From the NCBI RefSeq assembly GCF_048403405.1, contig NZ_CP183129.1: 64,000 bases of DNA, one strand, 5' to 3'. The DNA is from Escherichia coli (GTDB lineage Bacteria > Pseudomonadota > Gammaproteobacteria > Enterobacterales > Enterobacteriaceae). Below are positions 43,486 through 56,551 of this stretch, one piece after another. Both the position numbers and the translations under genes were made by a program. The notes under the pieces are model-generated. The model searched no databases and was not told the DNA's origin. It was given only the letters and a program-made list of their open reading frames with translations. Numbering within the stretch: the first letter of the stretch is position 1; the number at the start of each line of letters is the position of its first letter.

Positions 43486-44502
43486 ATGAACGCTAAGATA
43501 ATTGCCTCGCTGGCCTTCACCAGCATGTTCAGCCTCAGCACCCTGTTAAGCCCGGCGCACGCCGAAGAGCAGGAAAAGGCGCTGAATTTCGGCATTATTT
43601 CAACGGAATCACAGCAAAACCTGAAACCGCAATGGACGCCGTTCTTACGGGATATGGAGAAGAAGCTGGGCGTAAAGGTCAACGCCTTCTTTGCCCCGGA
43701 CTACGCGGGCATTATCCAGGGGATGCGCTTCAATAAAGTGGATATCGCCTGGTACGGCAACCTGTCGGCGATGGAAGCGGTGGATCGCGCCAACGGTCAG
43801 GTCTTCGCCCAGACGGTCGCGGCGGATGGATCGCCAGGTTACTGGAGCGTGTTGATCGTCAACAAAGACAGCCCGATCAACAACCTGAACGATCTGCTGG
43901 CGAAGCGGAAAGATCTCACCTTCGGTAATGGCGATCCTAACTCCACCTCTGGCTTCCTCGTCCCCGGTTACTACGTCTTCGCCAAAAACAATATCTCCGC
44001 CAGCGACTTCAAGCGCACCGTCAATGCCGGGCATGAAACCAACGCGCTGGCCGTCGCCAACAAGCAGGTGGATGTGGCGACCAACAACACCGAGAACCTC
44101 GACAAGCTGAAAACCTCCGCACCGGAGAAGCTCAAAGAGCTGAAAGTGATCTGGAAATCGCCGCTGATTCCAGGCGATCCGATCGTCTGGCGCAAAAATC
44201 TGTCCGAAACCACCAAAGACAAGATCTACGACTTCTTTATGAATTACGGCAAAACGCCGGAAGAGAAAGCGGTGCTGGAACGCCTGGGCTGGGCCCCGTT
44301 CCGCGCCTCCAGCGACCTGCAACTGGTACCGATTCGCCAGCTCGCGCTGTTTAAAGAGATGCAGGGCGTGAAAAGCAATAAAGGGCTGAATGAGCAGGAC
44401 AAGCTGGCGAAAACCACCGCGATTCAGGCGCAGCTGGATGACCTGGACCGCCTGAACAACGCGTTAAGCGCGATGAGTTCGGTAAGTAAAGCGGTGCAGT
44501 AA
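43486..44502 (+). CDS. phnD: phosphonate ABC transporter periplasmic binding protein PhnD, 338 aa
   Basis: Signal peptide MNAKIIASLAFTSMFSLSTLLSPAHA; matches recalled PhnD. Confidence 0.95.
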   Translation: MNAKIIASLAFTSMFSLSTLLSPAHAEEQEKALNFGIISTESQQNLKPQWTPFLRDMEKKLGVKVNAFFAPDYAGIIQGMRFNKVDIAWYGNLSAMEAVDRANGQVFAQTVAADGSPGYWSVLIVNKDSPINNLNDLLAKRKDLTFGNGDPNSTSGFLVPGYYVFAKNNISASDFKRTVNAGHETNALAVANKQVDVATNNTENLDKLKTSAPEKLKELKVIWKSPLIPGDPIVWRKNLSETTKDKIYDFFMNYGKTPEEKAVLERLGWAPFRASSDLQLVPIRQLALFKEMQGVKSNKGLNEQDKLAKTTAIQAQLDDLDRLNNALSAMSSVSKAVQ

Positions 44503-44516
44503 TGTGCTCGATCGAT

Positions 44517-44604
44517 CCCCTCTCCCTTGAGGGAGAGGGTTAGGGTGAGGGGGAAATGCGCACGCTGATGCCCTCACCCCGGCCCTCTCCCACAGGGAGA
44601 GGGA
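44517..44604. repeat. nested GC-rich palindromic intergenic repeat between phnD and phnE
   Basis: Two CCCTCTCCC-N4-GGGAGAGGG hairpins flanking complementary GGGTGAGGG / CCCTCACCC segments; resembles small E. coli intergenic repeat families. Confidence 0.55.
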
Positions 44605-44627
44605 GAAAACATTAAACGGAGCAATAT

Positions 44628-50635: not shown

Positions 50636-51768
50636 TTATCAATAACGTTAAGCTGGTGCTGGAAAACGAAGTGGTGCACGGTTCGCTGGAGATGCAGGAC
50701 GGTGAAATCCGCGCCTTTGCCGAAAGCCAGAGCCGCCTGCCGGACGCGATGGACGGCGAAGGTGGCTGGCTGCTGCCGGGGCTGATTGAGCTGCATACCG
50801 ATAATCTGGATAAATTCTTCACCCCGCGCCCGAAAGTTGACTGGCCCGCCCATTCAGCGATGAGCAGCCACGACGCGCTGATGGTGGCAAGCGGCATCAC
50901 CACCGTACTGGACGCCGTGGCGATTGGTGATGTGCGCGACGGCGGCGATCGGCTGGAGAATCTGGAGAAGATGATCAACGCCATCGAAGAGACGCAGAAA
51001 CGCGGCGTCAACCGCGCCGAGCACCGCCTGCACCTGCGCTGCGAACTGCCGCACCACACCACGTTGCCGCTGTTTGAAAAACTGGTGCAGCGCGAACCGG
51101 TGACGCTGGTATCGCTGATGGACCACTCGCCAGGCCAGCGCCAGTTCGCCAATCGCGAGAAGTATCGCGAATATTATCAGGGCAAATATTCCCTCACCGA
51201 TGCGCAGATGCAGCAGTACGAAGAAGAGCAATTGGCGCTCGCCGCACGCTGGTCGCAGCCAAATCGCGAAACCATCGCCGCAATGTGCCGCGCGCGACAC
51301 ATTGCGCTCGCCAGCCACGATGACGCCACGCACGCCCACGTTGCCGAATCCCACCAGCTTGGCAGCGTGATCGCCGAATTTCCCACCACGTTCGAAGCGG
51401 CAGAAGCCTCGCGCAAGCATGGCATGAACGTGCTGATGGGCGCGCCGAATATCGTGCGCGGCGGTTCGCACTCCGGCAACGTGGCGGCCAGTGAACTGGC
51501 GCAGCTTGGCCTGCTGGATATCCTCTCTTCCGACTACTACCCCGCCAGCCTGCTCGATGCGGCATTTCGCGTCGCCGATGACGAGAGCAACCGCTTTACG
51601 CTGCCGCAGGCGGTGAAGTTGGTGACCAAAAATCCGGCGCAGGCGCTTAATCTCCAGGATCGCGGGGTGATTGGCGAGGGCAAACGCGCCGACCTGGTGC
51701 TGGCGCATCGCAAGGGCAATCACATTCATATCGACCACGTCTGGCGTCAGGGTAAAAGGGTGTTCTGA
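50632..51768 (+). CDS. phnM: amidohydrolase-family PhnM (ribosyl-triphosphate diphosphohydrolase), 378 aa
   Basis: ATGA overlap with phnL; metal-dependent hydrolase motif region HTDNLD. Confidence 0.93.
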
Positions 51769-52325
51769 TGACGGGAAAACTGATTTGGTTAATGGGGGCC
51801 TCTGGCTCCGGAAAAGACAGTCTGTTGACGGAACTCCGCCAGCGGGAACAAACTCAGCTACTGGTAGCGCATCGCTACATCACGCGCGCCGCCAGCGCCG
51901 GAAGTGAAAACCATATCGCCCTGAGCGAGCAGGAGTTTTTTACCCGCGCGGGGCAAAATCTGCTGGCCTTAAGCTGGCACGCTAACGGCCTGTATTATGG
52001 CGTCGGCGTCGAGATTGACCTCTGGCTGCACGCTGGATTTGACGTGATGGTCAACGGCTCACGCGCCCATCTGCCGCAGGCGCGGGCGCGCTATCAATCG
52101 GCGCTGCTGCCCGTTTGTTTACAGGTTTCGCCGGAGATCCTGCGCCAGCGCCTCGAAAACCGTGGTCGTGAAAATGCCAGTGAAATTAACGCCCGACTGG
52201 CACGCGCTGCCCGCTATACTCCTCAGGATTGTCTTACGCTCAATAATGACGGCAGCCTGCGCCAGTCGGTCGACAAGCTGCTGACGCTGATTCATCAGAA
52301 GGAGAAACACCATGCCTGCTTGTGA
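51768..52325 (+). CDS. phnN: ribose 1,5-bisphosphate phosphokinase PhnN, 185 aa
   Basis: P-loop GASGSGKDS; overlaps phnM stop. Confidence 0.93.
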
Positions 52326-52746
52326 GCTTCGCCCGGCTACGCAGTACGACATCGACGCAGTTTACGCGCTGATTTGTGAGCTAAAACAGGCGGAGTTTGA
52401 CCACCACGCGTTTCGCGTGGGGTTTAACGCCAATCTGCGCGACCCGAACATGCGCTACCATTTGGCGCTGCTGGATGGCGAGGTTGTCGGCATGATCGGT
52501 CTGCATTTGCAGTTTCATCTGCATCATGTCAACTGGATCGGCGAAATTCAGGAACTGGTGGTGATGCCGCAGGCGCGCGGTCTGAACGTCGGTAGTAAAT
52601 TACTGGCATGGGCAGAAGAAGAAGCCCGCCAGGCCGGGGCAGAAATGACCGAGCTTTCCACCAACGTCAAGCGCCACGACGCGCACCGTTTCTATCTGCG
52701 CGAAGGCTATGAGCAGAGCCACTTCCGCTTCACCAAGGCGCTGTAA
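52312..52746 (+). CDS. phnO: aminoalkylphosphonate N-acetyltransferase PhnO (GNAT), 144 aa
   Basis: ORF and operon position; overlaps phnN 3' end. Confidence 0.92.
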
Positions 52747-52747
52747 C

Positions 52748-53506
52748 ATGAGCCTGACCCTCACACTTACTGGCACTGGCGGCGCACAGGGCGTTCCCGC
52801 ATGGGGCTGTGAGTGCGCGGCCTGCGCCAGAGCGCGGCGCTCATCGCAGTATCGCCGCCAGCCATGCAGCGGCGTCGTGAAGTTTAACGACGCGATCACC
52901 CTGATCGACGCCGGGCTGCACGATCTCGCCGATCGCTGGTCGCCCGGATCGTTCCAGCAGTTTTTGCTGACGCACTACCATATGGATCACGTGCAGGGGC
53001 TGTTTCCGCTGCGCTGGGGCGTGGGCGATTCGATCCCGATCTACGGCCCGCCGGATGAACAGGGCTGCGACGATCTGTTTAAACATCCGGGCCTGCTTGA
53101 TTTCAGCCACACGATGGAACCGTTTGTGGTGTTTGATTTACAGGGGTTACAGGTCACGCCCCTGCCGCTCAACCACTCAAAACTGACCTTCGGTTATCTG
53201 CTGGAAACGGCACACAGCCTGGTGGCGTGGCTGTCTGACACCGCTGGCTTGCCGGAAAAAACGCTGAAATTTTTACGCAATAATCAGCCGCAGGTAATGG
53301 TGATTGATTGCAGCCATCCGCCGCGTGCGGATGCGCCGCGTAATCACTGTGATTTAAACACCGTGCTGGCGCTGAATGAGGTTATCCGCTCGCCACGGGT
53401 GATTCTGACGCATATCAGCCACCAGTTTGATGCGTGGCTGATGGAAAACGCACTGCCGTCGGGGTTTGAGGCGGGGTTTGATGGGATGGAGATTGGGGTG
53501 GCGTGA
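52748..53506 (+). CDS. phnP: phosphodiesterase PhnP (metallo-beta-lactamase fold), 252 aa
   Basis: ATG at 52748 ([23 protein letters not shown]); HxHxDH-type motif THYHMDH; ORF track starts upstream in frame. Confidence 0.92.
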
Positions 53507-53560
53507 TGGGATGGAGATTGGGGTGGCGTGATGGGATGGAGATTGGGGTGGCGTGATGGG
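53481..53560. repeat. tandem direct repeat, about 3.2 copies of a 25-bp unit spanning the phnP stop codon
   Basis: Unit atgggatggagattggggtggcgtg at 53481-53505, 53506-53530 and 53531-53555, then partial atggg; copy 1 encodes the phnP C-terminus ...DGMEIGVA*. Confidence 0.9.
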
Positions 53561-53597
53561 GAGAATGTGCTCGCTGGCCCCCTCACCCGAGCCTACC

Positions 53598-53927
53598 TCA
53601 TCGCCCATACTCATCTTCCATTCTCCGCTCTTCATCCTCCAGTTGCCGACGCTCCTGATCAAGCTGGCGCTGGCGATCGTCCAGCTGCCTGCGGCGATCT
53701 TCAAACTGGCGGCGGCGGTCGTCATATTGTCTGCGCCGATCGTCGCTCACTTCACGCTGCCAGCCGTCGTCGTGCGAATCTTCATAGTCTCGCCCACGGT
53801 CAGGGTTATAAGCATCGTTAATCGCCTGCTGAATATTGCCAATGGTGTCGTCGATAATATCGGCCTGGGCCGGAACGGTGGACAGCGTGAGCAGGGTGAA
53901 TAAAAGAAATAGCGGAAAGCGTTTCAT
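53598..53927 (-). CDS. yjdP: secreted charged repeat protein YjdP, 109 aa
   Basis: Signal peptide MKRFPLFLLFTLLTLSTVPAQA; C-terminal Arg/Asp/Gln-rich heptad repeats; matches recalled YjdP. Confidence 0.85.
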   Translation of the reverse strand: MKRFPLFLLFTLLTLSTVPAQADIIDDTIGNIQQAINDAYNPDRGRDYEDSHDDGWQREVSDDRRRQYDDRRRQFEDRRRQLDDRQRQLDQERRQLEDEERRMEDEYGR

Positions 53928-53995
53928 TAGCCAACCTCAAAAAGAAACTCTATCCACATTAGTCATTACTCATCCATGCAAGTAGTGGATGAATC

Positions 53996-54313
53996 TCAAT
54001 TTCTCCGCTGCTCTATTGCCGTAATCGCCTCCACGTGTTGTTGATGACGACCGCCTTCGTACTGCGCGCCCAGCCACGCATCCACAATCATTTTTGCCAG
54101 TTCGAGGCCAACCACTCGTGAACCAAAAGCCAGTGCAACTTCACTGGCATAATGCGGATAATCAGTGCGCTCTGACGACCTGGTGTCTTTATCAATCACC
54201 TCACTCATTGACCATGAATAAAAGGCTGGCACAGCAACGCAGAATCCTGCGGTGCCAGCGACATGACCGCCCATTGCTCCGGTACGTTTTTTAATAAAAA
54301 ACACCGGTTGCAT
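53996..54313 (-). pseudogene. rpiB: rearranged remnant of ribose-5-phosphate isomerase B (rpiB), 105-codon ORF
   Basis: C-terminal 42 aa (FGSRVVGLELAKMIVDAWLGAQYEGGRHQQ.VEAITAIEQRRN) and an internal block (VIDK.T.SSERTDYPHYAS.VALA) match recalled RpiB, but about 50 central residues are missing and the first 34 residues are unrelated. Confidence 0.5.
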
Positions 54314-54565
54314 TGATTAATTGTGCTCAGTATTTGCCGAAGTACAATATATATAATAAATATATAAAACACCTCATATTATTTACAGAGATAATAAATT
54401 CGCGTAATTTTCCCTCTTCAGCACAAATGCCTAATAAAATGGCGCGTTCAGCTCACACTTCTACTTATTAAAGTCGCAATTTCCCAATTATGATAACGCC
54501 AGCTTTAAATGACGTATTTTGCATGGATTACATATTTACGACACAAATGATAAATGGAGATTTAT

Positions 54566-56551
54566 ATGAATAACTCTCGGTTATTCCGTTTGAGCAGGAT
54601 TGTTATTGCGTTAACTGCCGCCAGCGGCATGATGGTAAATACCGCTTACGCAACAGATGAAGCGAAAGCCGCCACTCAATATACCCAACAGATTAATCAG
54701 AATTACGCCAAATCATTACCGTTTAGCGATCGTCAGGATTTTGACGATGCCCAGCGTGGATTTATCGCCCCGCTGCTGGATGAAGGTATTCTGCGTGATG
54801 CTAACGGTAAAGTTTACTACCGCGCAGACGATTACAAATTTGATATTAATGCCGCTGCGCCGGAAACCGTAAACCCCAGCCTGTGGCGTCAGTCGCAAAT
54901 CAACGGTATTTCTGGCCTGTTCAAAGTCACCGATAAAATGTATCAGGTGCGCGGCCAGGATATCTCTAACATTACGTTCGTTGAGGGCGAGAAAGGCATT
55001 ATTGTTATCGACCCACTGGTGACGCCGCCTACCGCAAAAGCCGCACTTGATCTTTACTTCCAGCATCGTCCGCAAAAACCGATTGTTGCTGTGATTTACA
55101 CCCACAGCCACGCCGACCATTATGGCGGTGTGAAAGGCATTATCTCTGAAGCCGATGTTAAATCCGGCAAAGTTCAGGTGATTGCTCCAGCTGGCTTTAT
55201 GGACGAAGCCATCAGCGAAAACGTGCTGGCGGGTAACATCATGAGCCGCCGTGCGCTCTACTCTTACGGTCTGTTACTGCCGCACAACGCGCAAGGCAAC
55301 GTGGGCAACGGCCTTGGCGTGACGCTGGCAACGGGCGACCCGAGCATTATTGCACCGACTAAAACTATCGTCAGAACTGGCGAGAAGATGATTATCGACG
55401 GCCTGGAGTTTGACTTCCTGATGACCCCAGGTAGCGAAGCGCCAGCCGAAATGCACTTCTATATTCCGGCCCTGAAAGCCCTGTGTACCGCCGAGAACGC
55501 CACGCATACCCTGCACAACTTCTACACTCTGCGCGGCGCGAAAACCCGCGATACCAGCAAGTGGACCGAGTACCTGAACGAAACGCTGGATATGTGGGGT
55601 AACGACGCGGAAGTACTGTTTATGCCGCACACCTGGCCGGTCTGGGGCAATAAGCATATCAATGATTATATTGGTAAATATCGCGATACTATCAAGTACA
55701 TTCACGACCAGACCCTGCACCTGGCGAACCAGGGCTACACCATGAATGAAATCGGCGACATGATTAAGCTGCCGCCTGCGCTTGCCAATAATTGGGCCAG
55801 CCGCGGCTATTACGGTTCTGTCAGCCACAACGCCCGCGCGGTATATAACTTCTATCTTGGCTATTACGACGGTAACCCGGCTAACCTGCATCCCTATGGT
55901 CAGGTGGAGATGGGTAAACGTTACGTGCAGGCGCTGGGCGGTTCTGCCCGTGTCATCAACCTGGCGCAAGAAGCGAACAAGCAAGGTGATTACCGTTGGT
56001 CGGCAGAACTGCTGAAACAGGTGATTGCCGCCAACCCAGGTGACCAGGTCGCGAAGAATCTGCAAGCGAATAACTTTGAACAGCTGGGCTATCAGGCCGA
56101 GTCCGCCACCTGGCGCGGTTTCTACCTGACCGGCGCGAAAGAGCTGCGCGAAGGGGTACATAAGTTCAGCCACAGCTCCACCGGTTCCCCGGACACCCTT
56201 CGCGGGATGTCGGTCGAAATGCTATTCGACTTTATGGCCGTTCGCCTCGATAGCGCGAAAGCCGCAGGTAAGAATATCAGCCTGAACTTCAATATGAGCA
56301 ACGGCGATAACCTCAACCTGACGCTGAACGATAGCGTGCTTAACTACCGTAAAACGCTGCAACCTGAAGCCAACGCCTCTTTCTACATCAGCCGTGAAGA
56401 TCTTCACGCCGTGCTGACCGGACAAGCCAAAATGGCGGATCTGGTAAAAGCGAAGAAAGCCAAAATTATTGGCAATGGTGCGAAACTGGAAGAAATTATT
56501 GCCTGTCTGGATAATTTCGATTTGTGGGTGAATATCGTAACCCCAAATTAA
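54566..56551 (+). CDS. yjcS: putative alkyl/aryl-sulfatase YjcS (metallo-beta-lactamase superfamily), 661 aa
   Basis: ATG at 54566 with RBS tggaga ([21 protein letters not shown]...YA signal peptide); HxHxDH motif HSHADH; ORF track starts 12 nt upstream. Confidence 0.9.

Follow-up and report, generated by a model that had tools for sequence, protein, structure and literature searches.

Three of the described systems that stand closest to the tandem array analysed here are of interest for its structure and origin, and one for its possible function. Low-copy "VNTR" or minisatellite duplications (MLVA-type loci) resemble the array in consisting of perfect head-to-tail copies, in having alleles that differ by whole units (1, 2 or 3 copies in the present case), in an origin that slipped-strand mispairing at a short direct repeat could explain, and in being usable as clone markers. 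The array differs from such loci in that it has very few copies, is polymorphic in one rare haplotype only (6 multi-copy genomes out of 5,405) and shows a single copy number in all six of its RefSeq carriers. A second counterpart is found in the phn operon itself, where phnE of E. coli K-12 contains an 8-bp repeat switch which changes both the reading frame and the phenotype and makes the operon cryptic. The phnE repeat and the array would be related by the same process, the gain or loss of a tandem unit by slippage, but the array, unlike the phnE repeat, alters no reading-frame product, and phnE itself is annotated as intact (780 bp) in the lineage that carries the array. Literature pairing phnP with a tandem repeat in E. 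coli, or with VNTR or MLVA, was not found; the array is an ordinary feature of a well-known kind, and this particular locus appears to be undescribed.

The third system occupies the same spacer. The gap between phnP and yjdP in K-12 contains CCCCTCACCCTAACCCTCTCCCCAGAGGGGCGAGGG, the reverse complement of TMECO #22 (4,314,285-4,314,320), an element which Holder et al. 2015 (PMC4666352) list in their Table 1 and which is also HPGQ 51 in Kaplan et al. 2016 (PMC5100583). According to Holder et al. 2015, indel variation within 1-500 nt is unusually high at TMECO (BoxC/PIT) loci, and PIT/TMECO elements are without promoter or terminator activity. TMECO #22 shares with the array its location in the phnP-yjdP spacer, its richness in G and the reported proneness of such loci to indels, but the array duplicates phnP coding sequence in tandem and is not a dispersed repeat. 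The fourth comparison is with rut regions, which the yjdP-sense RNA of the array resembles in being about 80 nt long, C-rich (56%), G-poor (4%), unstructured and situated directly after a stop codon; this likeness is compositional only, and an allele with one copy is already C-rich.

The window analysed here is a stretch of 64,000 nucleotides (64 kb) of E. coli DNA. Tandem Repeats Finder reports within it a perfect 25-bp tandem array at 53479-53560, with 3.3 copies, 100% matches, 0 indels and a score of 164, which reads as three copies of the unit TGATGGGATGGAGATTGGGGTGGCG followed by TGATGGG (Table 1). This is the top-scoring tandem repeat of the window, in which just one other repeat, a degenerate 21-bp repeat within yjdP, scores 40 or more. 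The unit has 3 exact matches in the window compared to 0.00 expected from 100 shuffles, and it occurs nowhere else in the 64 kb, even when up to 3 mismatches are allowed, so that the locus contains two or more head-to-tail, highly identical copies beyond what chance would produce. The array begins in the last 8 codons of phnP and occupies 54 bp of the 91-bp gap between phnP and yjdP. An earlier note on this DNA had described a repeat that spans the phnP stop codon in a convergent gap of about 90 bp; that description holds, as does its count of about 3.2 copies, and its coordinates are good to 2 bp (a start at 53481 as compared to 53479 here). Copy 1 is the sole copy in nearly all E. coli.

Table 1. 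Coordinates of the array, its component copies and the flanking genes in the window.
Feature	Position	Strand	Description
phnP	52748..53506	+	252 aa, counted from the annotated start; last gene of the phn C-P lyase operon; stop codon TGA at 53504-53506
copy 1	53479..53503	+	inside phnP; part of an F codon and the codons for DGMEIGVA
copy 2	53504..53528	+	first triplet TGA is the phnP stop codon
copy 3	53529..53553	+	wholly intergenic; missing from the 2-copy assemblies GCA_045618685.1 and GCA_974496725.1
partial copy TGATGGG	53554..53560	+	7-bp direct repeat of the first 7 bases of the unit
remaining gap	53561..53597		holds CCCCCTCACCC, the sole remnant of the BoxC/PIT/TMECO #22 element that fills the K-12 gap
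yjdP	53598..53927	-	DDRRRQL repeat protein, 109 aa; convergent with phnP

Since 25 is not a multiple of 3, the frame of the TGA that opens each unit differs from copy to copy: the triplets at 53479, 53504, 53529 and 53554 lie in frames 2, 0, 1 and 2 relative to phnP. Because every unit opens with TGA and the phnP reading frame runs through copy 1, the earliest stop in that frame comes after copy 1 whatever the number of units, and PhnP is therefore untouched at any copy number of one or more. Simulated alleles with 1 to 6 copies all encode an identical PhnP C-terminus, which bears out the earlier proposal that changes in copy number leave the protein unaltered, and the annotations of all carriers agree on one PhnP (WP_000059935.1) and one YjdP (WP_000819737.1). 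The related proposal that every copy carries the same stop context is imprecise, as the TGA changes frame between copies and only the second TGA serves as the phnP stop. A contingency (phase-variable) locus was considered and rejected, since repeat number changes no reading frame and the array lies 3' of both genes. There are no promoter-like sites in 53000-54300, and none in the gap in particular. The phnP stop codon overlaps an ATG at 53504 (TGATG), and, as read by eye, the allele with three copies gains a predicted 16-codon ORF (53504-53556) which shares its final 8 residues with PhnP and whose nearest GGAG lies 13 nt upstream.

The distribution of the array was mapped using the 36-mer GGAGATTGGGGTGGCGTGATGGGATGGAGATTGGGG, which exists only where two units abut. 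The census set comprised 5,426 RefSeq complete E. coli genomes, in 5,405 of which the phnP-yjdP region is present. Any expansion of the canonical unit with a 25-bp period must contain this junction, and the other genomes with a canonical unit can for that reason be assigned one copy. The junction was found in 6 of the 5,426 genomes, exactly twice in each, giving three copies, and the remaining 5,399 of the 5,405 genomes with the locus have a single copy. The six carriers are TUM14771 and TUM1226 from Japan, MS 69-1 (colon), GN02461 (blood) and 4621 (Houston; blood) from the USA, and isolate 68 from Spain. Over 23 kb their reported identity to the window is 100.0% and their bit scores equal, or barely fall short of, that of a full match, while the next-best genome has 98.4% identity; on the sequence evidence the six genomes are one clone, which is rare and human-associated, and the window derives from this clone or from a strain nearly identical to it.

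A look-up of the exact PhnP protein in a wider assembly collection adds one further assembly with three copies (CP088348.1) and at least two assemblies with two copies, GCA_045618685.1 and GCA_974496725.1, both of which lie outside the RefSeq complete set. The first of these has one unit fewer than the window and otherwise shows 2 substitutions in 20.7 kb, and by this measure it belongs to the same clone as the window. The second is the same as the window only across approximately 51000-55030, where one repeat unit and 1 substitution set it apart, and to either side of this segment the divergence is about 2%; the shared 4-kb tract, which runs from the 3' end of phnM to the 5' end of yjcS, looks like a recent import by recombination that brought the array to another background. 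The haplotype with one copy is represented by strain 06-00048 (alfalfa sprout, USA). This strain has 579 differing alignment columns relative to the window over 12 kb (roughly 4%, gap columns counted), but across 53411-53813 it is the same as the window save for an exact gap of 50 bp, or two units, and a synthetic window allele reduced to one copy matches it at 82 of 82 bases. Judged by this match, strain 06-00048 carries the exact ancestor haplotype. Strains thus differ by whole units, with 1, 2 and 3 copies on one local haplotype.

The possibility that the array is an assembly artefact, produced by the expansion or collapse of reads, was raised in the earlier note as a condition that would refute its account, and it is hardly credible. 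It is suggested by nothing other than the perfection of the copies, and no support for it was found. Identical arrays of three copies are present in seven independent complete assemblies from different laboratories in Japan, the USA and Spain, the 82-bp array is shorter than one Illumina read, and the assembly with two copies that belongs to the clone has no other indels in the flanking 20 kb.

The allele distribution also bears on the idea of a hypervariable VNTR or contingency locus, in which slipped-strand copy-number change is frequent. The occurrence of three allele sizes on one haplotype is what such a locus would produce, as is the coexistence within one clone of forms with two and three copies that are only 2 substitutions apart in 20.7 kb. 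However, the six complete genomes of the clone are epidemiologically unrelated and all have exactly three copies, no allele with four or more copies was seen among the genomes examined, and the junction 36-mer has no exact match in 100,044 GTDB species representatives or in JGI metagenome contigs. Copy number is in addition unable to switch any reading frame or promoter, and two steps, from one copy to two and from two to three, suffice to explain all observed alleles. A hypervariable locus is consequently improbable; the census of alleles with two and three copies beyond the complete RefSeq genomes is very small, and the mutation rate is poorly bounded. The expectation that slipped-strand variability between strains is likely stands insofar as alleles with one, two and three copies do exist, but it fits poorly with a collection in which 5,399 of 5,405 loci have one copy and every RefSeq carrier has three. 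The evidence lends weak support to the expectation of a VNTR and describes a locus that acts as a slow lineage marker, with its variation confined to one haplotype.

The haplotype with one copy indicates how the array could have originated. A unit flanked by a short direct repeat is the classic substrate for replication slippage in tandem-duplication mutagenesis, and in this haplotype the unit is bounded by a 7-bp direct repeat, TT[TGATGGG]ATGGAGATTGGGGTGGCG[TGATGGG]GAG, with 18 bp between the repeats. The partial copy TGATGGG is already in the ancestor haplotype of strain 06-00048, and it is likely that the TGATGGG repeat provided the microhomology for the first slippage event. In the proposed mechanism the nascent strand would misalign between the two TGATGGG repeats and one 25-bp unit would be gained, after which the resulting 57-bp periodic tract would ease the gain of a second unit. 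The sole physical effect of these events would be to make the phnP-yjdP gap longer by 25 or 50 bp. Slippage driven by a hairpin was rejected, since the array as single-stranded DNA has no self-structure and folds at 0 kcal/mol. We infer that the array is probably a neutral, lineage-restricted tandem duplication generated by replication slippage.

Such a duplication would have arisen in a spacer that already belonged to the BoxC/TMECO loci prone to indels in E. coli. Among the E. coli loci compared, the gap between phnP and yjdP has at least nine lengths, from 27 to 158 bp, and several of these alleles resemble deletions by microhomology in which the G-rich arms of TMECO #22 and a second, partial copy were the partners (for example, O157:H7 compared to K-12). 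The lineage of the window keeps just an 11-bp remnant of TMECO #22, CCCCCTCACCC. The 25-bp unit was itself considered as a member of the BoxC/PIT/TMECO family and rejected, as it does not match the consensus CCCTCNCCC-N3-6-GGGNGAGGG-N3-GGGNGAGGG; a regex scan with this consensus finds no element in the phnP-yjdP gap of the window and one in the K-12 locus (positions 532-566 of the extracted locus). Elsewhere in the window two complete BoxC/PIT/TMECO elements lie in opposite orientation in the phnD-phnE spacer, at 44518-44551 on the plus strand and 44571-44603 on the minus strand, and GCA_974496725.1, which is otherwise related to the window there, has indels exactly at 44502-44613, the site of both elements. 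Under the slippage account the array would have been stable enough to mark one human-associated clone and would have moved once, on the 4-kb recombination tract.

A separate question is whether the array affects the 3' ends of the two convergent transcripts, either through structure or through composition. The earlier note had supposed that the array could form alternative structures that affect termination or mRNA stability, and the structural predictions for the most part do not support this. The region 53479-53597 contains no terminator-like site on either strand, that is, no G+C-rich hairpin followed by a U-tract of the kind that identifies an intrinsic terminator, and Rfam 15 has no match at an E-value of 1 or less on either strand of 52500-54500. 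A 201-nt region folds no better than its shuffles on either strand (z = -0.81 and +1.15), and the array alone, as minus-strand RNA, is unstructured in ViennaRNA, with a minimum free energy of 0.0 kcal/mol. The one exception is a borderline stem in the phn-sense 3' region of 137 nt, in which the C/U-rich sequence antisense to the yjdP 3' end may pair with the two extra copies. The predicted folding energy of this region is -61.5 kcal/mol (z = -2.0; 5 of 200 shuffles do equally well), a value which is weak evidence, the limits of the region having been picked after the first fold was seen; the version with one copy folds at -18.2 kcal/mol (z = -0.8).

No other 78-nt stretch of the 64 kb is as G/C-skewed as the array, which has 45 G and 3 C on the plus strand, about 6.8 SD from the mean, and an allele with one copy would still rank first in the window by this measure. 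Each unit read on the minus strand contains 14 C and 1 G in 25 bases. The sharpest flip in strand skew in the window is found here as well, from the G-rich 53461-53562 (G 45, C 3 per 78 nt) to the C-rich 53578-53655 (C 39, G 8) on the plus strand, and the two convergent transcripts therefore each meet a C-rich, G-poor stretch just past their own stop codon. In a yjdP read-through transcript the array would form a C-rich, G-poor tract. With 45 C and 3 G in 78 nt, little structure and a position past the stop codon, this tract has the composition of a rut region, for which some 70-80 nt of C-rich, G-poor and little-structured RNA past a stop codon would be expected; the yjdP-sense RNA is thus a candidate for a Rho-loading site, in a resemblance that is compositional only.

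These properties can be assembled into the alternative that the expansion tunes how the convergent phn and yjdP transcripts terminate or how stable their 3' ends are. On this account the rut-like C-rich tract of the yjdP transcript is lengthened from about 32 nt to 82 nt, and the phn transcript gains a long protective stem. The C-richness of the minus-strand unit, the rank of the array as the most skewed 78-nt window of the 64 kb and its lack of structure as minus-strand RNA all fit the account, as does the difference between the fold of the 137-nt region and that of its one-copy version, and the gap has no intrinsic terminator, so that factor-dependent termination is plausible. However, composition is insufficient to define a rut site, and C-richness is already a property of the one-copy allele, which 99.9% of genomes have; the 137-nt stem was delimited with the first fold in view, and in the 201-nt context folding is no better than in shuffles; carriers of two and three copies coexist in one clone with no sign of selection; and literature linking phnP to Rho-dependent termination was not found. 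We regard such tuning as unlikely. Its most specific form, in which the 25-bp expansion adjusts, in this lineage alone, a factor-dependent termination zone that serves the phn operon and yjdP in both directions, is distinctly improbable. The terminator, Rfam and fold results lend no support to a regulatory role for the array. The neutrality in the slippage account is nevertheless an argument from absence of evidence, and the skew and the predicted stem may correspond to an effect on transcript 3' ends.

The richness of the plus strand in G raises a further structural alternative, modelled on what has been proposed for the BoxC/HPGQ elements of the K-12 gap, namely that the array forms a G-quadruplex or triplex which acts as a structural block. 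Nine tracts of three or four G occur in 53461-53561 and, with a loop limit of 9 nt, give ten overlapping G4 patterns, and K-12 has HPGQ 51 (TMECO #22) in the same spacer. The number of patterns is 0 at the canonical loop length of up to 7 nt, however, and the minimum-energy fold that ViennaRNA predicts when G-quadruplex energies are included contains no quadruplex. The unit is off the TMECO consensus, and the PIT/TMECO elements themselves are reported to lack promoter and terminator activity (PMC4666352). A structural block of this kind is very improbable.

Several features of the neighbourhood can be recorded alongside the array. The degenerate 21-bp tandem repeat in yjdP (53672-53744; 3.5 copies, 75% identity) encodes the DDRRRQL repeats of YjdP. 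The gene is 357 bp in strain EcPF7 as compared to 330 bp and has an internal stop in strain MB64, and this repeat may therefore itself vary in length. In the region beyond yjdP, down to about 54566, only a 318-bp remnant of the RpiB family (53996-54313, minus strand) precedes yjcS; the lineage of the array lacks the als operon and a complete rpiB (450 bp in K-12), and O157:H7 and O157:H16 strains have a hybrid sensor kinase/response regulator at the rpiB/als position instead.

The array carries little biological weight, since PhnP is unchanged by it. If the reading in which it belongs to a termination zone were true, each unit would extend a Rho-loading tract on the yjdP read-through RNA and would also extend a G-rich arm that, paired with the C/U-rich region downstream, would cap the 3' end of the phn mRNA, so that copy number would set the antisense interference between phn and yjdP, and the locus would be a small natural example of the tuning of convergent transcription by repeat length. 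As a probably neutral duplication, the array matters in two other respects. It is a documented case of microhomology-mediated tandem duplication at an indel-prone BoxC/TMECO spacer, for which the ancestor and intermediate alleles are available as well as the derived one, and its junction, GGAGATTGGGGTGGCGTGATGGGATGGAGATTGGGG, is a near-unique marker for one human-associated clone of E. coli and for the 4-kb recombination tract derived from that clone.
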